A stretch of 64,000 nucleotides of DNA from a virus (taxonomy: Duplodnaviria > Heunggongvirae > Uroviricota > Caudoviricetes): IMG/VR virus record IMGVR_UViG_2939521961_000009; one strand, written 5' to 3'. Below are positions 1,917 to 64,000 of the stretch, in pieces (the stretch's first letter is position 1; every line of letters begins with the position of its first letter). The position numbers and the translations under genes are program-made. The notes beneath the pieces were generated by a model. That model searched no databases and had not been told where the DNA came from. It saw nothing but the letters and a program-made list of their open reading frames with translations.

Positions 1917-1942
1917 TCCCTGAAAACCTCGGTTTACGGGAA
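1917..1942. other. gix/pix-like recombination crossover site (left)
   Basis: Reverse complement reads TTCCCGTAAACC GA GGTTTTCAGGGA, closely matching the Mu gix site as recalled (TTCCTGTAAACC GA GGTTTTGGATAA). Confidence 0.6.
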
Positions 1943-2083
1943 ACGGTAAATAAGGCGGCGAATGCCCTGCCATCGAACGGAACGGCTGTTGCAGCGAATA
2001 AACTCGCCACTCCAAGAAATATTAATGGTGTCCCATTTGACGGAACGCAGGATATAAATATTACATCGGGGATGACGCAGTCT
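1931..2083. repeat. Inverted repeat, left copy (~155 bp) of invertible segment
   Basis: Plus-strand 1931-2083 is near-identical to reverse complement of 3152-3304 (e.g. shared GGTTTACGGGAAACGGTAAATAAGGC). Confidence 0.8.
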
Positions 2084-2287
2084 GTGGCTGACTCACGTTA
2101 TGTTCAAAGCATTCGAAGAGGTTCAAGGTCAACGATTGGAATGCAATATAATATTTTTGAAGTTCCTGACGGATGCGTACTTACAGGGCTTGATGTCGCT
2201 GGTGATGGTAATGCAACGGTAACCGCATATTATCGACCTGTTCAGTTTCTGATAGATGGTTCGTGGAAAACAGCTTCCAGCGCATAA
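1931..2287 (+). CDS. Alternative tail-fibre C-terminal segment (S'v-like), no own start, silent in current orientation
   Basis: Open frame through the left repeat into unique sequence ...SVADSRYVQSIRRG...YYRPVQFLIDGSWKTASSA; parallels the expressed fibre tip. Confidence 0.55.
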   Translation, partial: GLRETVNKAANALPSNGTAVAANKLATPRNINGVPFDGTQDINITSGMTQSVADSRYVQSIRRGSRSTIGMQYNIFEVPDGCVLTGLDVAGDGNATVTAYYRPVQFLIDGSWKTASSA

Positions 2288-2366
2288 AAGTGCAGTAGTT
2301 CAAAAAACAGATTATCTGAATAAATATATGATGATTTTGTCTTTTCAACAAAAACAAGGTGAAATA

Positions 2367-2888
2367 ATGGAGCTTATTAACGTAAAACGATATTACCCGG
2401 AACACAAACCCTATGGTGAGGATGTTCAGTATTTCCAGAGTGAGGACGGAAGGGATTTTTATGAATCTATCCCGCTTTTCACAAAGAAATACAAACTCTG
2501 TATTTCGCCTGTAACGGGTATTATCTGCTCTGTTGCTGAAGATGTCTCTGCTTTATATCCGGCAGGTTTTACTGTTGTTGAAGTGGACGAACTGCCGGAA
2601 GGTGTGAATATTGACGGTAACTGGCAGTTTTCTGATGGCCTGATATCAAAGGTGCCGGTAAACTGGAAGACGGTTGCTGAAAAGCGTCGCTCATCGCTGC
2701 TCCAGGAAGCCAACGAAACCGTGGATGACTGGAAAACAGAATTAAAACTGGACATGATTAGCGATGAAAATAAATTACAGCTGACGCGCTGGATGGCGTA
2801 TATCCGACAGCTTAAAGAAATGCACTTTAATGATATTGCCAGTGAGGGGCATTACCAGGCGATTCCCTGGCCGGAAAAACCGGAATAA
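2367..2888 (+). CDS. Tail fibre assembly protein (Tfa/U-like), in the currently inverted (non-expressed) orientation
   Basis: MELINVKRYYPEHKPYGEDVQYF... typical Tfa N-terminus; AAGGTGA Shine-Dalgarno 5 nt upstream of ATG at 2367; ORF track lists a longer 2256 start. Confidence 0.8.
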   Translation: MELINVKRYYPEHKPYGEDVQYFQSEDGRDFYESIPLFTKKYKLCISPVTGIICSVAEDVSALYPAGFTVVEVDELPEGVNIDGNWQFSDGLISKVPVNWKTVAEKRRSSLLQEANETVDDWKTELKLDMISDENKLQLTRWMAYIRQLKEMHFNDIASEGHYQAIPWPEKPE

Positions 2889-2922
2889 TTCAGAGGGTGC
2901 ATTCAGCACCCTTTTCTGTGGT

Positions 2923-3834
2923 TTACACTGAACTTACCGTTCTCCAGGCATTATTAATATAAATCTGAACCGGGCGATAATAGACCCCACCGATATTGTC
3001 CGCAGACCGGGAGCCGGTTTCCTGCACGTTAATACCGGAAAGCATACAACCGGAAGGTGCGCTGTAATTCCATGATATTTCATTGCCTCCGGGTGAATGA
3101 TAGCTCTGTGCTCCAAGCTGAACATTCTGTACATACCGGCCATCTGCGGTTGACTGCGTCATTCCTGACGTGATGTTGATATCCTGCGTTCCGTCAAAAG
3201 GAACGCCATTAATATTTCTTGGGGTGGCGAGTCTGTTTGCTGCCACGGCGGTTCCACCCGATGGCAGGGCATCAGCAGCCTTATTTACCGTTTCCCGTAA
3301 ACCGACGTTATCGATAAAAGCGCCTTTATCCGGAATGTCTGCGCCGTTCTGCTCCCTGCGCAGGTAACGGTTATCACCTTCGCTTTTGCTGTAAACATCC
3401 AGATTATTACGGGCGGTTCCCGCATTCTCCAGGTCGGCAAGGTTCTGATCCTTCGCCAGAGCATTAACGTCACCGGGACCAAGACTGTTTTTTGTGGCAA
3501 GCGCCCCAAGACCAAGATAACCACGGGCAAGACGCTGGGCTTCCGCACCGGCATCAGCAATTTCTTTCAGGTTGTTTTTCCGGGAAAAGGCATTCGCAGC
3601 GATAATGGCTTTAATGGACAGCGTAAGCTGGTTTAACTGCGCCTTATCCGGCTGAATACTGGCTTCAGCCAGAATATTCAGCAGTTCGGCCTGGAGAATA
3701 TTCAGCCAGTCCTGACCAATCCAGCTGATACCTTTTTGTCCGTCACCTTCGGTAAACCAGGTGGTGGTATTACTCTGCGCCGGTGCCAGCGCAGGCATAT
3801 TCGCCACGCCGGAATTATTATCAACATGAAACAT
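2923..3834 (-). CDS. Tail fibre protein (Mu S-like); constant N-terminus fused to the currently expressed variable tip
   Basis: 303 aa; C-terminus crosses the gix site and right inverted repeat; start overlaps stop of upstream gene at 3834. Confidence 0.8.
   Translation of the reverse strand: MFHVDNNSGVANMPALAPAQSNTTTWFTEGDGQKGISWIGQDWLNILQAELLNILAEASIQPDKAQLNQLTLSIKAIIAANAFSRKNNLKEIADAGAEAQRLARGYLGLGALATKNSLGPGDVNALAKDQNLADLENAGTARNNLDVYSKSEGDNRYLRREQNGADIPDKGAFIDNVGLRETVNKAADALPSGGTAVAANRLATPRNINGVPFDGTQDINITSGMTQSTADGRYVQNVQLGAQSYHSPGGNEISWNYSAPSGCMLSGINVQETGSRSADNIGGVYYRPVQIYINNAWRTVSSV
3152..3304. repeat. Inverted repeat, right copy of invertible segment
   Basis: Reverse complement matches 1931-2083; encodes the conserved ...ATPRNINGVPFDGTQDINITSGMTQ stretch in both tail-fibre variants. 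Confidence 0.8.
3292..3317. other. gix/pix-like recombination crossover site (right)
   Basis: TTCCCGTAAACC GA CGTTATCGATAA on plus strand; shares the 12-bp half-site with the left site in inverted orientation. Confidence 0.6.
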
Positions 3835-17848: not shown

Positions 17849-17969
17849 ATTGCCTCCGTATAAAATATGAATATAAAATAAGCAGGCGGTCAGTGTACGC
17901 TTAACTGGTAAAGTCGGTGCCTGCCTCCGGGTGGATCATGTATGCGGGTTCGACCCCCGCCACTGACCG

Positions 17970-35654: not shown

Positions 35655-35838
35655 GGTAAATTAGCAGTATCAAATGTGTCGCCGTTTTTTGATCTTTTGA
35701 CTATTTGTTGAGCAGTCGGTATCAAAAAGAGTTTTCCGTCCGAAGTATACATCACCTGTTTTATTTCAGCATCTTACAGGTGATTTCACCTCCTTTCACT
35801 AAAACCCTTGTCGGTATCAAATGATTCACCTGGTTACA
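35655..35838. repeat. Mu-like left-end (attL) with three transposase-binding repeats and terminal TG
   Basis: Minus strand reads TGTAACCAGG TGAATCATTTGATACCGACAAG (like Mu L1 TGATTCACTTGAAGTACGAAAA); further TTTGATAC(C/T)G copies at 35707-35729 and 35655-35678. Confidence 0.55.
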
Positions 35839-35985
35839 CTGGTCGGCAGTTCGGTTCTCCCGTCGGGCTTTGTGTGTCCGCGTCGTTTTTACGGCCTCAT
35901 AAGCCTGGATCACCGCACGGGAACGCAGCCTTGCCGCTTTCCATCCTGGTGAAAAAACGCCAATCACATCATCAAGAATTGCCAT
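35839..35985 (-). pseudogene. Lambda-family portal protein, N-terminal 49 codons only (truncated by Mu-like insertion)
   Basis: MAILDDVIGVFSPGWKAARLRSRAVIQAYEAVKTTRTHKARRENRTADQ then frame runs into Mu-like end; follows W and terminase A in lambda order. Confidence 0.65.
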
Positions 35986-36203
35986 CAGAACCTCGCCAGC
36001 CGGTACCCGGGATGCCCCCGTCGTCGTGTAATCAGAGCCGCAAGGCGGCGCTCCCACTCCTGCCGTCCCTGCCGGATCTCAGATAAGTTTTCCATGGTCA
36101 TCTGCTGACCATTAAAGGTGACGGATTTTCCGTCCAGCACCGCCATTTCAGCTTCCGTATAACGCTGAATCATGGCTTCGATATCATTCTGGTTCATAAC
36201 CAT
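35985..36203 (-). CDS. Head-tail joining protein W-like
   Basis: 72 aa ending ...RRRGHPGYRLARF, located between terminase A and portal. Confidence 0.65.
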   Translation of the reverse strand: MVMNQNDIEAMIQRYTEAEMAVLDGKSVTFNGQQMTMENLSEIRQGRQEWERRLAALITRRRGHPGYRLARF

Positions 36204-49794: not shown

Positions 49795-51438
49795 TGTAGT
49801 CACTTTTGTGGGGACAGTCCACAAAACTGCCAACTTCCGCTTCTTGCTCTTAGCGGACATTAGCATAGGCTATTTACCATAACGCCTCATTACGCGCACC
49901 GCCCAGACTGACTCAGCGCGTTTCTGGCATATCCCCGGTAAAACAAGTAACAAACCACCCGAAAATGAACATCAGAAACGCGACTTAAGAATCTACCCTA
50001 TGAATGGATATGCACTCAACCGAATCGATCTTGGTTTCAATCTATTTTATCGGGATCAGGCTTCTTTTTAGGTAACTTCGGGGGCTTAACTTGCTGATGA
50101 CTTTGCGTTCGGCGCGTAAGCCAGGGATGGTCAGCTTTAGATTTAACATAGTATTTTGAGCGTAAATCAATACGGGCATTATCCACTCGTTCATGGACAC
50201 TCTTTTCATCATCCAGTGGTATAGGCTCCGGGCCATCAACATACTTTTCCCAGCCCAGCGCTTTCCCGTCATACAGAACGTTAATTTCACCGTCAAAGTT
50301 CTCACATACAGTAACAACCGAATGCCTAAGTCGATATCCCCGGCCCTCACTGCGTACCTGAAACGCACTGCTTTTGTACTGGAAAGTGAGATTTTTAGAC
50401 AGAACGCGCTTCGCCTGTAGGCTGAAGATATAACCCAGTTCCTCTTCAGAATGGTGCACATCAAGATGAGCATTATCAGTAGTACGAGGCGACGTAGCGA
50501 ACCGGTTGTTATAGGCTTCAATAAAGGTCGGCAACCATGCATTTGCTGTTTCAATATCACTGATATTCTGAAGCCGCATTTCTTTGACCAGCCTGTCCTG
50601 TAGTGTCTGATTGGCGCGCTCTACCCGCCCTTTTGCCTGCGGGCTGTTGGCATGGATTGGCTCGATGCCCAGTGTCTTTATCGCACGAGTGAACTGGGTC
50701 AGCTCACCTTCCCGCTCTGGGTTATTTACCCTGAATATACTGTGTCTATCAGAGTAGAGAGCGAGCGGTACGCCATGATCATTAAGGTAACCCCGGAGGG
50801 TTTCCATGTAAGCCCGGGTTGTTTCAGCAGGCACAAAACGCAACGCCATCAACGCACTGGTGGCATCATCAATGAAAACGATCAGTGTACATCTGGGGCC
50901 TCGATTTTCAAACCAGTCATGAGGTGAGCCATCAATCTGGATCAGTTCACCGTAAGATGGTCGTCGCATGCGGCGTTGATATATACGGGCAATTTTACGA
51001 CGGCGTTCACGCCATAACCCCTCTTCTATCATCCACTTTCTGAGAGTTTCAACGGATAAAGATAAACCGTGTATCTCGCGCAATTTTTCGCACGCAAACG
51101 TAGGTCCAAAATCAGCGTAACGGCCTTTGAGGAGTGAAATTACTGTTGCTCTGAATTCAGTAGAAAAGGAATTATTAGGACGCTTTCCACGTCGGTGGGA
51201 AACCAGACCAGAAGGCCCTTCATTTCTATACCGTTGCACCAGACGTTTAACCTGCCGAATAGAAATGCCAATGCGTGCCGCAGCTTGTTCCTGAGTAATA
51301 TGTCGATTAATTGACTCCTGAATAATCTGAAGTCGGTGGAGTTCCTTATGACTCATCGTAACAGTCTCTTTGATCATGAAAAATCCCCCAGAGAATTGTC
51401 TGGGGACATTTTAGAATGGTTCAAAGGGGACATTACAG
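49795..51438 (-). mobile_element. Insertion sequence carrying single rve-type DDE transposase (IS481/ISNCY-like); boundaries approximate
   Basis: Single 446-aa HTH+integrase-core transposase; candidate TGTA-initiated imperfect ends; no target duplication confirmed. Confidence 0.4.
50037..51377 (-). CDS. DDE (rve/integrase-core) transposase with N-terminal HTH
   Basis: 446 aa; LIQIDGSPHDWF...IDDATS...YSDRHSIF... integrase-core-like D,D,E spacing. Confidence 0.75.
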   Translation of the reverse strand: MIKETVTMSHKELHRLQIIQESINRHITQEQAAARIGISIRQVKRLVQRYRNEGPSGLVSHRRGKRPNNSFSTEFRATVISLLKGRYADFGPTFACEKLREIHGLSLSVETLRKWMIEEGLWRERRRKIARIYQRRMRRPSYGELIQIDGSPHDWFENRGPRCTLIVFIDDATSALMALRFVPAETTRAYMETLRGYLNDHGVPLALYSDRHSIFRVNNPEREGELTQFTRAIKTLGIEPIHANSPQAKGRVERANQTLQDRLVKEMRLQNISDIETANAWLPTFIEAYNNRFATSPRTTDNAHLDVHHSEEELGYIFSLQAKRVLSKNLTFQYKSSAFQVRSEGRGYRLRHSVVTVCENFDGEINVLYDGKALGWEKYVDGPEPIPLDDEKSVHERVDNARIDLRSKYYVKSKADHPWLTRRTQSHQQVKPPKLPKKKPDPDKID

Positions 51439-58387: not shown

Positions 58388-58582
58388 TGTTCAACTGTCG
58401 CCGGTTGTGACTGGTATTCTGCAACCGGCGCTCGTCTGATGTAAGAGATAAAGAAATCGATGAGCGAAGTAATCATGATTGTCTCTCCCGGCAAATGGGT
58501 ATCCGAAGAGCAGTTAATTGCGCTGAAAGGAATAAAAAAAGGTACGTTAAAAGTAAGCGACTCGTCAGAACCGTATTGATAT

Positions 58583-60154
58583 TTACTGAGAGCTCAGATC
58601 AACTTTCCAGGGCAACAGATCGCGTACCCGGTTTGCCGGCCAGTCCTGGATATGTTCAATGACGTAACGCAGCCACTTTTCTGGCTCCACATTGTTCAGA
58701 CGGCATGTGCCGATCAGCGAGTACAACACCGCCGCATGTTCACCACCGCTGTCGGAACCCGCGAACATCCAGTTTTTCCGGCCTACGGCCACTCCCCGTA
58801 AGGCGTTCTCTGCGATGTTGTTGTCGATTTCCACCCAGCCATTACTGCAGTACACGTTCAGTGCATCCCACTGTTTCAGCAGGTATGCGAACGCTTTTGC
58901 CGTATCTGAGTGACGCGACAGTGTTTTCATCTGTTGCTGTATCCAGTCATACAGTGACTGCATCAGTGGCGCGGCTCTGGCTTTTCTTGCCGCCAGACGC
59001 TGTTCTGCTGAACAGCCCCGGACCTCTGCCTCGATGGCATACAGTTCACCGATACGCTGCAGGGCTTCCGTGGTGATGTAGGTGGGCGCTCTTGCATGCA
59101 CATCGTGGATTTTTCTCCGGGCATGAGCCATACACGCGGCTTCCGTTATTCTGCCGGATTCGTATAACGCCCGGTAACCACCGTAAGCATCGGCCTGAAG
59201 CACACCGCTGTAACCGGCCAGGTGATTTTGTGGATGGATACCTTTCCGGTCCGGACTGTACGCGAACCAGACCGCCGGGGGCATCTGTGAACCGGCGTTA
59301 CGGTCATCACGGACGTAGACCCACAGCCGGGCTGTCCGGGTTTTACCGCTGCCCGGCTCCTGGACCGGGACGGGGATATCATCAGCATGGACTTTACCGG
59401 GCATCAGCACATACTGGCGCAGGACGTCATACAGCGGCTCCAGCAGTTCAGCAACAGCACCTGTCCAGCGCCCCAGTGTGGCACGGCTCAGCTCCACTCC
59501 CTGACGACGGTATATTTCTGACTGGCAGTATAACGGCAGATGGTCTGCATATTTCCCGGTGACAACATGGGCCAGAAGCCCCGCTCCGGCATAACTGCGT
59601 GCAATGGGTTTTGAAGGTACTGGTGCCTGCACGATATGGTCGCACCGGCAACAGGCCTGTTTCGGACGTTGTGTTTCGATAACCTTAAAGGCGCTGCTGA
59701 TAAGCTCCAGTTGCTCTGACACATCACATCCCAGAGAACTGAGTTCACCACCACAGGCAGGACAGCATTCCTCTTCCGGCCGGATAACCCGGGTTTCACG
59801 GGGAAGTGAGGCCGGTAACGGTTTACGGGCTGAAGACTGGCGCAGGGCGGATGGCAGTACCGGGTCATATTGCTCACCCAGCGTTTCCGCCATTTCTTCC
59901 TGAAGTGCGCTGATTCGCTCCTGTGCTTCCTGTATCTGCCGTTCGGTTTTTGCACGAAGTTTTTCTGAGCTTTTACCGAACTGCATACGTTGCAGTTTCG
60001 CAACCAGCGCCTTCAGCCGGTTGATTTCGGAAGCATAAGCCGCCACCCGCTGTGAGAGCAGGCGGTTGTATTCAGCCATCTGGCGGATGGTGTCCTGTTG
60101 CGTCTGCAACAGTGCCCGCAGGCGGGCGTTCTCATGAGCAAGTGAGGTGTCCAT
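58583..60154 (-). CDS. IS66-family transposase TnpC
   Basis: 523 aa; leucine-zipper-like N-terminus, CxxC zinc motif, IS66-type DDE region. Confidence 0.85.
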
Positions 60155-60173
60155 ATCCTCACTTTACAACGGG

Positions 60174-60521
60174 TTATATGCGGATTCCAGCGCGTTCCGT
60201 TCGTTTCGGGTGCTTCCAGTTGATACCTTCAAGAAGCATGGATAACTGAGCCGGAGTAAGGTGCACCTTGCCGTCACGGGTGACTGGCCAGACGAAGCGG
60301 CCCCGCTCCAGGCGTTTGGTGAAGAGGCACAGTCCGTCACTGTCAGCCCACAACACTTTTATCTGGTCACCCCGGCGTCCGCGGAAGATGAACAGGTGTC
60401 CGGAGAACGGGTCATCCTTCAGGACGTTCTGAACTTTTGATGCCAGGCCGTTAAAGCCATTTCGCATATCGGTGATACCTGCAACCAGCCAGATACGCGA
60501 ACCTGCAGGGAGAGATATCAT
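60174..60521 (-). CDS. IS66-family Orf2 (TnpB)
   Basis: 115 aa from MISLPAGSRIWLVAGITDMR... Confidence 0.8.
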   Translation of the reverse strand: MISLPAGSRIWLVAGITDMRNGFNGLASKVQNVLKDDPFSGHLFIFRGRRGDQIKVLWADSDGLCLFTKRLERGRFVWPVTRDGKVHLTPAQLSMLLEGINWKHPKRTERAGIRI

Positions 60522-60622
60522 CAGTGGCTGCTCCCTTTTATTTCGCGGATAAGTGTCTGTAATAACGCCGGCGTCAGTTTGAGGTGTACTGGCAATAGCG
60601 GACACTACCATTTGTTCTTTTT

Positions 60623-61441
60623 TTAAGCAGCCATCTGATGATATTTTTCCCTGAAGGCTGCCGGGGAGATATTCCCCAGACGAGAGTGACGACGCTGACG
60701 ATTGTAGAAAATCTCAATGTATTCCCGTATTACTGAGATGGCTTCATCCCGGTTATTAAAACGATAGTGGCTCAGGCTCTCATTTTTCAGCGTTCCCCAG
60801 AAGCTTTCCATCGGAGCGTTGTCGTAACAGTTACCTTTACGCGACATTGATGTTTTCAGACCAAACTGCTCCTGTATGACCCGGTAATCGTATGCGCAGT
60901 ACTGTGAACCTCGATCAGAGTGGTGGATTAGCCCGGCAGGTGGGCGCTGGCTCCTGAGCGCCATAAACAGAGCTTTACCTGTCAGCTCTTTTGTCATGCG
61001 CTCTCCCATGGCGTAGCCGACAATTTCGCACGTATAAACATCTTTGATGCCAGCGAGGTACAACCATCCCTCCTGTGTGGCAACATACGTCAGGTCCGCC
61101 ACCCAGACCTGATTTGGTGCTGTAGGAGCGAACGTCTGGTTCAGCAGATTTGGCGCAACTGGCAGATTGTGGTTCGAGTTCGTAGTCGCTCTGAACTTGC
61201 GTTTCTGCTTACAGCGTAGCCTTAGCTCCTTACGAAGACGTGCCAGTCGGTCACGACCAACGATGATGCCATTCTCTGCCAGCTCCGTCTGGAGCCGCCG
61301 GGTTCCATATGTTTCGCGAGTGCGGATATGTGCCACCTTAATCTCCAGTTTTAGCCGCTCATCACTTTGTTTTCTGTCTGAGGGTTCATGCTGTACCCAG
61401 TTGTAATAACCGCTCCTGGATACACCAAATACCTGACACAT
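60623..61441 (-). CDS. IS3-family transposase OrfB (integrase core)
   Basis: 272 aa; DDE motif region; frame continues upstream into orfA. Confidence 0.85.
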   Translation of the reverse strand: MCQVFGVSRSGYYNWVQHEPSDRKQSDERLKLEIKVAHIRTRETYGTRRLQTELAENGIIVGRDRLARLRKELRLRCKQKRKFRATTNSNHNLPVAPNLLNQTFAPTAPNQVWVADLTYVATQEGWLYLAGIKDVYTCEIVGYAMGERMTKELTGKALFMALRSQRPPAGLIHHSDRGSQYCAYDYRVIQEQFGLKTSMSRKGNCYDNAPMESFWGTLKNESLSHYRFNNRDEAISVIREYIEIFYNRQRRHSRLGNISPAAFREKYHQMAA

Positions 61442-61476
61442 CGCTTCAATGGGAAATTGTTGTCGCCATTGTTCGA

Positions 61477-61779
61477 TTAACGCGTATTTTTCAGCGACTC
61501 CTGTGCAAAATACGCTGTTGCTTTTTTTAATATATCTCGATCAAGGCGAGCTTCATTTAACGCCTTACGCAGTTGCAGAATTTCAGATTCCAGTTCAGCC
61601 ACCGTGCGGGAACCAGGAGTACCGAGCCCTTTTCTGGCGGCGGTAACCCATTGTCCTAAAGTGCCTTCAGGAAGAGATAATCGGGAAGCGCCTTCACTGA
61701 TCGAAAGTTGATTTTCAAGAACCGTTCTGACAGCTTCGGCTTTGAACTCTTTAGAGTAACGTTGGGTTTTTCTGCTCAT
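61477..61779 (-). CDS. IS3-family transposase OrfA (HTH)
   Basis: 100 aa MSRKTQRYSKEFKAEAVRTVLENQLSISEGA... Confidence 0.85.
   Translation of the reverse strand: MSRKTQRYSKEFKAEAVRTVLENQLSISEGASRLSLPEGTLGQWVTAARKGLGTPGSRTVAELESEILQLRKALNEARLDRDILKKATAYFAQESLKNTR
61523..61529 (-). other. A7 slippery heptamer for -1 programmed frameshift OrfA to OrfAB
   Basis: Minus strand TTA AAA AAA GCA in orfA frame; -1 frame reads through to MCQVFGVSR. Confidence 0.7.
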
Positions 61780-61843
61780 TATTAGCTCCTTCTGATGCCA
61801 TTCTATTTCAGGAAGGAGTGTCCGTTAAACTCAGGCTACCTCA

Positions 61844-62465
61844 GTTTACCTTTAAGCCTGAGAGTTCCGGCCGGCAGAACCAGCTCACAACACAGACTGT
61901 CGGACGGTGTATTTATCTGCTCTGGTTCCTGTGCGGGGGCCGGGATTTTATTATCCGGCTCCGGCGTTAACGTCACGGGAAGCAGTGCCGGCATATTTTT
62001 TCCGGAAGGCAGCAGGCCACCTTTCCGGTATTGATGGCGCCAGTTGAAGAGCAGGTTATCGTTGATTCCGTTTTCCCGGGCGATCTGCGCCACACAGGCT
62101 CCGGGCTGCAGTGACTGCTCCACTAAGGCGATTTTAAACTCATAAGGGAAGTTGGGCCGCCGGGGACGTTTTTTTACCACGGGGGCTTCGGATATAACGG
62201 TGCTTTCAGGACGTACGACTGGTACCGTGGAAAATTGTCCGTAAAGGCAGGCATCAAGTTCCTGCTCCGACATGCCTGCGGGCAAAGGCCACGAAAGGCC
62301 AGCTCTCCGAAAGCGCACGAACATACTACAAACTGTTGATTTTGGTACACCCAGGCGACGCCCGGCCACAACCCGGGGTAAATGTTCTTCAAAGTGAAGA
62401 CGTAAAGCTTCAGTGATCCAGGTCCGGTGTTTCATACGATAGTGTCCATTAAAAATGATGGACAT
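61844..62465 (-). pseudogene. IS66-family Orf1 (TnpA-like), C-terminus interrupted by IS600-like insertion
   Basis: Frame would continue across the insertion site to overlap orf2 start once the IS3 element and one GTT are removed. Confidence 0.55.
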
Positions 62466-62704
62466 TATTTTTGTAGAGCCGGAGGAAACAGACCAGACGG
62501 TTTAAATGAGCCGGTTACCGTTAAAAAAGGCCCGGGAAAAATCGTTTATGGAAGGAAGGGAATATAAGCATGTCGCTCATGACGGTATGCCATGGGATAA
62601 CAGTCCATGCTTTTATAACCTGGAAGAAATTGATCGCTGGATTGAGCGCCAGGCATCAGCGAGACCAAGACGTCATCTTACTTGACTAAAAGCCACACTA
62701 ACTA

Positions 62705-64000
62705 ATGAGAGAAGTTGAAATGAAATATCCGACAGGCGTGGAAAACCATGGAGGGAAATTACGTATCTGGTTTGTTTATAAAGGCGTAAGAGTCAGGGAA
62801 AATCTGGGGGTTCCTGACACATCAAAAAACAGGCGCGTTGCAGGTGAACTACGCTCCTCTGTTTGTTACGCAATAAAAACTGGTGTTTTCGACTATGCAA
62901 AACAGTTTCCCTCCTCACGCAATCTGGAAAAATTTGGTGAGGCCCGACAAGATTTAACCATAAAAGAACTGGCTGAAAAATTTTTGGCACTGAAAGAAAC
63001 TGAAGTCGCCAAAACATCACTCAACACATACCGTGCCGTCATCAAAAATATCCTGAGCATAATCGGTGAAAAAAATCTTGCCTCATCGATTAATAAAGAA
63101 AAATTACTGGAGGTTCGTAAAGAGCTACTGACTGGATACCAGATCCCCAAAAGTAACTATATTGTTACACAACCAGGGAGATCGGCTGTAACTGTAAATA
63201 ATTACATGACAAATCTTAACGCCGTGTTCCAGTTTGGTGTTGATAACGGTTACCTGGCAGATAATCCGTTTAAGGGGATCTCGCCATTAAAGGAATCAAG
63301 AACCATTCCGGATCCTCTTTCGCGGGAGGAATTTATCCGTCTTATCGATGCGTGCAGAAATCAGCAAGCAAAAAATTTATGGTGTGTTTCTGTTTATACT
63401 GGCGTTCGCCCTGGTGAGCTGTGTGCACTTGGATGGGAGGACATAGATCTGAAAAATGGAACAATGATGATCAGGAGAAATTTAGCAAAAGACCGTTTCA
63501 CGGTACCAAAAACACAGGCGGGAACCAATCGGGTCATTCATCTTATTAAGCCAGCAATCGACGCTCTCCGGAGTCAGATGACATTAACGAGACTGAGCAA
63601 AGAGCATATCATTGATGTTCACCTCAGAGAGTATGGCAGAACAGAAAAACAAAAATGCACCTTTGTTTTTCAACCTGAAGTGTCAGCGAGAGTAAAAAAT
63701 TATGGTGACCATTTTACCGTTGACTCAATAAGGCAGATGTGGGACGCAGCGATAAAACGTGCCGGACTCCGCCATCGAAAATCATATCAGTCGAGACATA
63801 CTTATGCCTGCTGGTCGCTGACAGCTGGTGCTAACCCGGCATTTATAGCAAACCAGATGGGCCATGCAGATGCGCAAATGGTATTTCAGGTATACGGAAA
63901 ATGGATGTCTGAAAACAATAATGCACAGGTAGCTTTGTTAAATACACAGTTAAGCAAGTTTGCCCCAACCATGCCCCATAACGAAGCAATGAAAAATTAA
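62705..64000 (+). CDS. Tyrosine-recombinase phage integrase (IntQ-like); stop codon at window end
   Basis: 431 aa; C-terminal catalytic region with R...HxxR...Y (RHTYA) pattern. Confidence 0.85.
   Translation: MREVEMKYPTGVENHGGKLRIWFVYKGVRVRENLGVPDTSKNRRVAGELRSSVCYAIKTGVFDYAKQFPSSRNLEKFGEARQDLTIKELAEKFLALKETEVAKTSLNTYRAVIKNILSIIGEKNLASSINKEKLLEVRKELLTGYQIPKSNYIVTQPGRSAVTVNNYMTNLNAVFQFGVDNGYLADNPFKGISPLKESRTIPDPLSREEFIRLIDACRNQQAKNLWCVSVYTGVRPGELCALGWEDIDLKNGTMMIRRNLAKDRFTVPKTQAGTNRVIHLIKPAIDALRSQMTLTRLSKEHIIDVHLREYGRTEKQKCTFVFQPEVSARVKNYGDHFTVDSIRQMWDAAIKRAGLRHRKSYQSRHTYACWSLTAGANPAFIANQMGHADAQMVFQVYGKWMSENNNAQVALLNTQLSKFAPTMPHNEAMKN

Follow-up and report, generated by a model that had tools for sequence, protein, structure and literature searches.

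Nested IS66-family and IS600 insertions split the excisionase gene of a Qin-like prophage in O26:H11-type Escherichia coli

At the int–xis end of a defective Qin-like prophage, the excisionase gene xis is split by an IS66-family element, which is itself interrupted by a full-length IS600. It is very probable that two successive transpositions explain this structure. The boundaries of both elements, a target duplication for each of them, and the exact restoration of both interrupted sequences can be read directly from the DNA.

The 64,000-nt stretch analysed here (the window) is from an O26:H11-type E. coli and is near-identical to strain War. The prophage is Qin-like and lambdoid and adjoins rspB; it is already defective, since a Mu-like prophage sits inside its portal gene. 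The nested structure is ordinary in kind and is already annotated in public genomes (RefSeq, War).

Results

The excisionase gene is interrupted, not replaced

A sequence-only reading of the window had placed an IS66-family element at 58553-62681, occupying the space between ydfE and int that would be expected to hold an excisionase. An excisionase gene is in fact present: because its two fragments flank the IS66-family element, the element interrupts xis rather than replacing it. The features that define this arrangement are as follows.

58460-58552, plus strand: 5' fragment of xis, codons 1-31, the last 8 bp being the left copy of the duplication
58545-58552 and 62519-62526, no strand: 8-bp target duplication CGTTAAAA of the IS66-family element, with identical flanks
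58553-62518, minus strand: IS66-family element, 3,966 bp (2,699 bp plus IS600 plus 3 bp)
58553-58574 and 62497-62518: terminal inverted repeats of the IS66-family element, GTAACCGGCTCATTTAAACCGT versus GTAAGCGACTCGTCAGAACCGT, 16 of 22 positions matching
62519-62685, plus strand: 3' fragment of xis, codons about 29-83 and the stop
62720-64000, plus strand: int, the prophage integrase, intact; the window ends at its stop

When 58460-58552 is joined to 62527-62685, the product is an 83-aa Xis that is 100% identical to the intact protein WP_000005552.1 and matches PF06806 (putative excisionase) over profile positions 1-69 of 70 (E=1.6e-31). RefSeq annotates the two pieces in War as 'xisR, missing C-terminus' and 'xisR, missing N-terminus', the latter corresponding to 62521-62685. 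The sequence-only reading had proposed looking for xis in intact relatives, and this search was productive: the restored empty site is contiguous and 99.8% identical in the genomes that match it best, which have an intact xis annotated as 'excisionase family protein', and most of the restored site is present in 2,513 genomes. The gene resembles the Qin/Rac-type prophage excisionases (PF06806; RefSeq 'xisR' or 'excisionase family protein') and occupies the same place, directly upstream of a co-oriented int and next to rspB. Unlike the uninterrupted Qin/Rac-type xis, the gene in the window is split at codon 31 by an insert of 3,974 bp. The start of int lies 35 bp downstream of xis; its product carries the Pfam domains Arm-DNA-bind_2 and Phage_integrase, corresponds to RefSeq WP_000877011.1 and shows zero differences from War.

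These fragments bear directly on where the IS66-family element ends. The left end proposed at 58553 (GTAAGCG...) was borne out, whereas the right end proposed at 62681 was not. The sequence up to 62681 does read ...CTTAC, the reverse complement of which contains the GTAAG of the left end, but the agreement does not continue past those five bases (14 of 48 positions match), and the 8-bp flanks differ (CGTTAAAA versus TTGACTAA). The true end lies at 62518, 163 bp leftward. With this end, the 8-bp duplication whose confirmation had been proposed is found, CGTTAAAA standing on both sides of the element, and this 8-bp sequence occurs once in uninterrupted xis genes. Intact copies of 2,699 bp fit exactly to an end at 62518, and 62519-62685 together with 58460-58552 make up a complete known excisionase. 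Thus there is scarcely any chance that an IS66 element spanning 58553-62681 fills intergenic space from ydfE, the exonuclease gene, to int in a prophage without an excisionase.

The interrupting element is an IS66-family member labelled 'ISCro1 family' in RefSeq

IS66-family elements have terminal inverted repeats of about 20 bp that start with GTAA and duplicate 8 bp of target; IS66, IS679 and ISEc8 belong to the same family, and ISCro1 is named after Citrobacter rodentium. Without IS600 and one GTT, the element in the window measures 2,699 bp and matches many intact E. coli copies end to end at 100% identity. RefSeq names these 'IS66-like element ISCro1 family', and our putative assignment to ISCro1 follows this label. 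A stand-alone contig of 2,699 bp covers exactly the same ends as the restored element. An independent copy in the O103:H2 strain 12009 also has these ends, flanked by another 8-bp duplication (TGTCATTC), and a Citrobacter copy with 94.8% identity is flanked by the duplication CCGTAATA. In the representative genomes scanned, that copy was the nearest one from Citrobacter, and C. rodentium gave no locus. The literature found on ISCro1 gave copy numbers and one differing length, with no sequence: what one paper calls ISCro1 is 2,824 bp (PMC8764528), compared with 2,699 bp for the element in the window.

IS600 interrupts tnpA near its 3' end

The second insertion lies between tnpA (orf1) and tnpB (orf2) of the IS66-family element, as the sequence-only reading had described, and its position relative to the three IS66 genes is given below.

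58583-60154, minus strand: tnpC, intact, encoding a 523-aa IS66-family DDE transposase
60174-60521, minus strand: tnpB, intact, encoding a 115-aa IS66 accessory protein
60521-60579, minus strand: 3' end of tnpA, displaced: its final 17 codons and TGA, severed by IS600
60577-60579 and 61844-61846, no strand: GTT copies, the 3-bp target duplication of IS600
60580-61843, minus strand: IS600 (IS3 family), full length, 1,264 bp
61779-61477 (orfA) and on to 60623 (orfB), minus strand: IS600 reading frames
61847-62465, minus strand: 5' part of tnpA, codons 1-208 of 225

The bounds that had been given for the IS3-family element are exact. Its termini are TGAGGT...ACCTCA, with imperfect inverted repeats in which about 20 bases out of the first 30 agree, and the GTT duplication is perfect. 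Perfect 3-bp duplications were likewise found at six of seven further independent IS600 insertions examined. IS600, an IS3-family element first described in Shigella sonnei, is present here in a form 99.9% identical (1 nt apart) to many full-length plasmid copies annotated as 'IS3-like element IS600 family'. It shares with the IS600 copies of E. coli plasmids the length of 1,264 bp, the TG...CA ends, the 3-bp duplication and an A7G frameshift motif, which lies at 61522-61528 and reads as a T run in the plus strand; Shigella plasmids were also matched. A -1 slip at A7G yields an OrfAB of 385 aa, the length in the RefSeq annotation. The encoded proteins match Pfam HTH_Tnp_1 and rve (the catalytic, DDE domain of orfB) and NCBIfam transpos_IS3 (E=7e-100). 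One private substitution, at 61540 (OrfA E80D), sets this copy apart from War and the plasmid copies. IS600 itself looks fully functional.

As found, the tnpA frame enters IS600 for 11 bp, gains one Arg and ends (ORF 61836-62465). Removal of IS600 and one GTT restores the frame to 225 aa, ending in ...KGKLTPALLQTLIREIKGSSH and the stop, and the restored TGA shares one base with the ATG of tnpB (TGATG), as it does in intact copies. The restoration claimed by the sequence-only reading therefore holds; the stop/start overlap exists only after restoration and is destroyed by IS600 in the DNA as found.

All three genes are recognisably of the IS66 type, and their order is tnpA, tnpB, tnpC, with each exceeding the cut-off of its NCBIfam IS66 equivalog model. 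The restored TnpA matches NCBIfam IS66_access_TnpA (E=1.1e-88) and Pfam HTH_Tnp_1. TnpB matches Pfam TnpB_IS66 (E=4.7e-40) and NCBIfam IS66_TnpB, its War counterpart in RefSeq being WP_000624622.1. TnpC matches Pfam DDE_Tnp_IS66 (E=1.4e-101) together with LZ, zf-IS66 and C-terminal domains, and NCBIfam transpos_IS66 (E=1e-141). ISCro1-type elements have the same tnpA-tnpB-tnpC order, 1-base overlap, DDE_Tnp_IS66 domain, GTAA... repeats and 8-bp duplication; in contrast to the intact copies, the copy in the window is broken by IS600 within the last 17 codons of tnpA.

The IS66-family insertion preceded IS600

Strain War (NZ_CP074717.1, 3017950-3023490) has the same nested structure with the same junctions, and every part is annotated in RefSeq, tnpA being listed as a pseudogene. 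War and the window differ by three single bases within 57.5-64 kb, one of which gives War a nonsense codon in tnpA that the window lacks, and by about 26 differences over 60 kb; in addition, a segment at about 1.9-3.3 kb that can invert faces opposite ways in the two. The window thus represents a close relative of War or another assembly, and not that very record. War also speaks to the reliability of the structure itself. IS600 and the IS66-family element are present in many copies per genome, and such repeats trip assemblers, so that a false nesting could be imagined to come from misjoined copies. However, War is an independently assembled complete genome that reproduces the junctions base for base, and a chimeric join would not give clean duplications and exact restoration to known sequences. 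An assembly artefact is thus highly improbable.

The xis/IS66 junction is found in about 64 of 5,426 complete genomes, while the IS66/IS600 junction occurs as one continuous match in War alone among the complete genomes. E2865 and about 60 other genomes have xis::IS66 with an uninterrupted IS66-family element. In O26:H11 strain 11368, IS600 lies in int and not in tnpA, and its full-coverage match consists of four separate pieces. Because xis::IS66 is present in about 64 genomes and this IS600 insertion in War alone, the IS66-family insertion came first and IS600 entered recently.

This distribution also weighs on the order in which the composite was assembled. IS600 might instead have entered an IS66 copy elsewhere, with the 3,966-bp composite then moving into xis, or the structure might have arisen by gene conversion between copies. 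Movement in trans of a composite with both IS66 ends intact is conceivable, and the tnpA of other ISCro1-type copies has also been entered by IS600. In addition, TnpC in the window has Cys210, the variant WP_000381372.1 of 12009 and EH031, whereas Arg occupies this position in the copy that War, 11368 and E2865 carry at the same site; this one SNP (R210C) hints at exchange between copies. Against this, about 60 genomes have the identical xis::IS66 junction and duplication with the IS66-family element uninterrupted, the IS66/IS600 junction at this position is found at this locus only and in War only, and in the other nested copies IS600 sits elsewhere in tnpA. We therefore consider such a route very unlikely and retain two successive insertions at this locus.

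Discussion

In the history that we propose, the 2,699-bp IS66-family element entered xis at codon 31, duplicating CGTTAAAA and splitting the gene. Much later, and in one sublineage only, IS600 inserted into that element at a point in tnpA with 17 codons still to come before the stop, 58 nt ahead of the tnpB start, and duplicated GTT. After the first event, the prophage would not be expected to make a functional excisionase. With functional Xis absent, efficient excision by Int alone would be impossible.

The second event would affect the IS66-family element. Its TnpA would be short of the last 17 residues and of the one-base stop/start overlap with tnpB, and the tnpA promoter would now be separated from tnpB and tnpC by 1.27 kb. 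Transposition reportedly needs all three IS66 genes, as described for IS679. This copy has probably lost autonomous transposition, because TnpA is shortened, the overlap is gone and tnpB and tnpC are far from the tnpA promoter. Since both IS66 ends are intact, the other copies in related strains, 5-24 per record, could still mobilise it in trans. IS600 is co-oriented with tnpB and tnpC, and read-through from an IS600 promoter could therefore express both. Scanning for promoters, whether of tnpA or directed outward to tnpB, returned only a promoter-like site in the orfA-side end of IS600 (61828-61800), with a total below that of shuffled sequence.

Amplification of IS600 is known for STEC lineages including O26 (PMC9397093), and this locus shows high IS600 activity in O26-type strains. 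Various O26-type strains carry IS600 at five distinct points in the exonuclease-xis-int end of the prophage, a stretch of roughly 7 kb, and within ISCro1-type tnpA it is found at three different positions, always co-oriented with the IS66 genes. It is unlikely that IS600 lands non-randomly in this lineage, and the pattern could equally come from chance combined with a high IS600 copy number. If landing were non-random, it could point to a preference for certain regions or structures as targets, or to selection for read-through that starts at the IS600 promoter and expresses tnpB and tnpC.

The relevance of these findings beyond correct annotation is small. Two clean, PCR-testable markers result: the xis::IS66 junction, present in about 64 complete genomes, marks an O26-type STEC lineage, and the IS600 insertion, present in one, marks a sublineage. 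For the prophage, the reading changes from a phage that lacks xis to one whose xis was inactivated by insertion, which would leave the prophage locked in place.

Structure of the nested elements

In the ORF list of the window, every transposon gene between 58.5 and 62.5 kb lies on the minus strand, and each scores strongly against Pfam and NCBIfam profiles.

Genes of the nested elements and the adjoining integrase
58583-60154, minus strand: tnpC, a 523-aa IS66-type DDE transposase
60174-60521, minus strand: tnpB, 115 aa
running to 60623, minus strand: IS3-type orfB
61477-61779, minus strand: IS3-type orfA
61836-62465, minus strand: open frame of 209 aa whose C-terminal half is IS66 TnpA
62720-64000, directly after the 3' part of xis: intact int (Pfam and RefSeq)

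The sequence-only reading had placed an IS3-family element inside an IS66-family element, and this central observation is correct. The exact span of the inner element, 60580-61843 (1,264 bp), was confirmed in the window, as were both copies of the claimed GTT duplication (60577-60579 and 61844-61846). The inner element starts with TGAGGT, ends with ACCTCA and has imperfect inverted repeats, with about 20 of the first 30 positions pairing. It is 99.9% identical, differing at one base, to many full-length plasmid copies annotated as IS600. Within it lies an A7G slippery run (61522-61528), at which a -1 shift gives the 385-aa OrfAB product annotated by RefSeq.

Taken alone, a 3-bp flank match is weak evidence, having a chance of about 1/64. 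The insertion is better supported because the restored element is exact and other IS600 sites also carry 3-bp duplications: among seven other independent insertions extracted, six had a perfect duplication, with a different sequence each time. Excising IS600 together with one GTT leaves 2,699 bp that match many intact E. coli elements over their full length at 100% identity. As had been read, the same excision also restores the tnpA frame; it is 225 aa long, and its TGA and the tnpB ATG overlap by one base (TGATG), which intact copies also show. This nested insertion is ordinary and is already annotated.

The IS66-family element interrupts xis

The left end of the IS66-family element had been placed correctly at 58553 (GTAAGCGACTCG...). 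The right end had been put at 62681, where pairing with the left end is limited to five bases and the flanks are unlike; this position is thus ruled out as the boundary, which lies instead at 62518. There the terminal repeat reads GTAACCGGCTCATTTAAACCGT vs GTAAGCGACTCGTCAGAACCGT, and the 8 bp outside the two ends are identical (CGTTAAAA at 58545-58552 and 62519-62526). With this end and IS600 removed, the element measures 2,699 bp, the length of intact copies. Independent copies in O103:H2 12009 and in a Citrobacter genome have the same end bases and different 8-bp duplications (TGTCATTC and CCGTAATA, respectively), and a stand-alone 2,699-bp contig covers the same ends.

The E. coli element was also met, at 98-100% protein identity, on three very short contigs (L014, SFGJ01000083.1; L022; L034) labelled Clostridiales MAG, Streptococcus sanguinis and Acinetobacter idrijaensis. 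The complete IS makes up one of these (exactly 2,699 bp), and all three look like contamination or binning artefacts, not true hosts.

The element had been described as occupying the space where an excisionase would be expected. That description needs correcting, as xis can be rebuilt from both flanks, which shows that the excisionase gene is the insertion target and is not missing. Deleting 58553-62526 fuses 58460-58552 in frame to 62527-62685 and yields an 83-aa product, MSEVIMIVSPGKW...RPRRHLT, that covers the whole profile of PF06806 (putative excisionase; E=1.6e-31). Its sequence is that of the intact excisionase WP_000005552.1; the gene for that protein has CGTTAAAA once, at the same position. 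In the best-matching genomes, a rebuilt empty site of 600 bp finds a contiguous match of 99.8%, and 2,513 genomes contain most of it; among the matches listed, its annotation reads exonuclease, excisionase, integrase.

Order of insertion and spread of IS600

The xis/IS66 junction was found in 64 of 5,426 complete genomes, a count that may include an occasional stitched match, and most of these genomes, for example E2865, carry the IS66 element uninterrupted. As one continuous match, the IS66/IS600 junction occurs among complete genomes only in E. coli strain War. It follows from this distribution that IS66 inserted in the ancestor of a lineage and that IS600 arrived recently.

Elsewhere in this region, sister strains carry IS600 at other sites: late in int (11368 and others), at the 5' end of int (7_26_9A), mid-int (95_0274) and in the exonuclease gene (EH031). 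Across O26-type strains, the exonuclease-xis-int region has five positions with independent IS600 insertions (L001, L007, L008 and L010, the same locus in other strains). At other loci (L012, L013), IS600 has entered tnpA of ISCro1-type copies (ISCro1 family being the RefSeq label of this IS66-family element) at two further positions, making three positions in this gene, always co-oriented with the IS66 genes. Clean 3-bp duplications flank all but one of the IS600 insertions examined. IS600 amplification has been reported in STEC lineages, and the IS-excision enhancer (IEE) can excise IS3-family elements including IS600 (PMC9397093).

Comparison with strain War

The window is O26:H11-type E. 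coli and, apart from one inverted segment, matches War (NZ_CP074717.1) at 99.96% over 60.8 kb. The RefSeq record of War already annotates two xisR fragments, an 'IS66-like element ISCro1 family' transposase, tnpB, IS600 and a tnpA pseudogene. The two sequences are not identical, having three base differences in 57.5-64 kb: TnpC R210C (59527), IS600 OrfA E80D (61540) and a nonsense codon in tnpA that is confined to War and absent from the window (62306). All three fall inside the two IS elements. The TnpC variant also occurs in O103:H2 12009 and in the EH031 copy at the same site, and gene conversion among IS copies may account for its presence at this locus in more than one strain. OrfA E80D was not seen in War or in the best plasmid copies.

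The inverted segment, 1925-3312, has collinear flanks. Its neighbours are a 'recombinase family protein' gene (~1300-1860) and Mu-like prophage tail-fibre genes, and it resembles an invertible tail-fibre segment of the Gin/Min type in the opposite orientation. From the War annotation, which lists Mu transposase, Gam, Mor and gpT head genes, this Mu-like prophage (~1-35500, with 35830-36057) appears to be inserted within a Qin-like lambdoid prophage, and a portal-protein pseudogene fragment lies just past its end. RefSeq annotates an 80-nt 'tRNA-OTHER' at ~17888-17967, between head-morphogenesis genes of the Mu-like prophage. At ~50307-51377, next to ydfW, the early part of the Qin-like prophage holds a truncated transposase pseudogene of IS1202-like type (ISEsa1 family).

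Probable consequences for the prophage and the IS66 copy

Split as it is, xis would encode no excisionase, so Int should excise the prophage far less, if at all; the prophage would be defective anyway, because its portal gene holds the Mu-like prophage. As for the IS66 copy, its TnpA loses the last 17 residues, with one Arg in their place, the stop/start overlap of tnpA with tnpB is also lost, and tnpB and tnpC now lie 1.27 kb from the tnpA promoter. Han et al. are said to have found in 2001 that all three IS66 genes are needed for transposition, so that the interrupted copy is probably not autonomous. Both of its ends are intact, and other genomic copies could supply the proteins. A promoter scan placed a promoter-like site in IS600 at 61828-61800, and since IS600 has the same orientation as tnpB and tnpC, read-through from this site into the two genes is possible.
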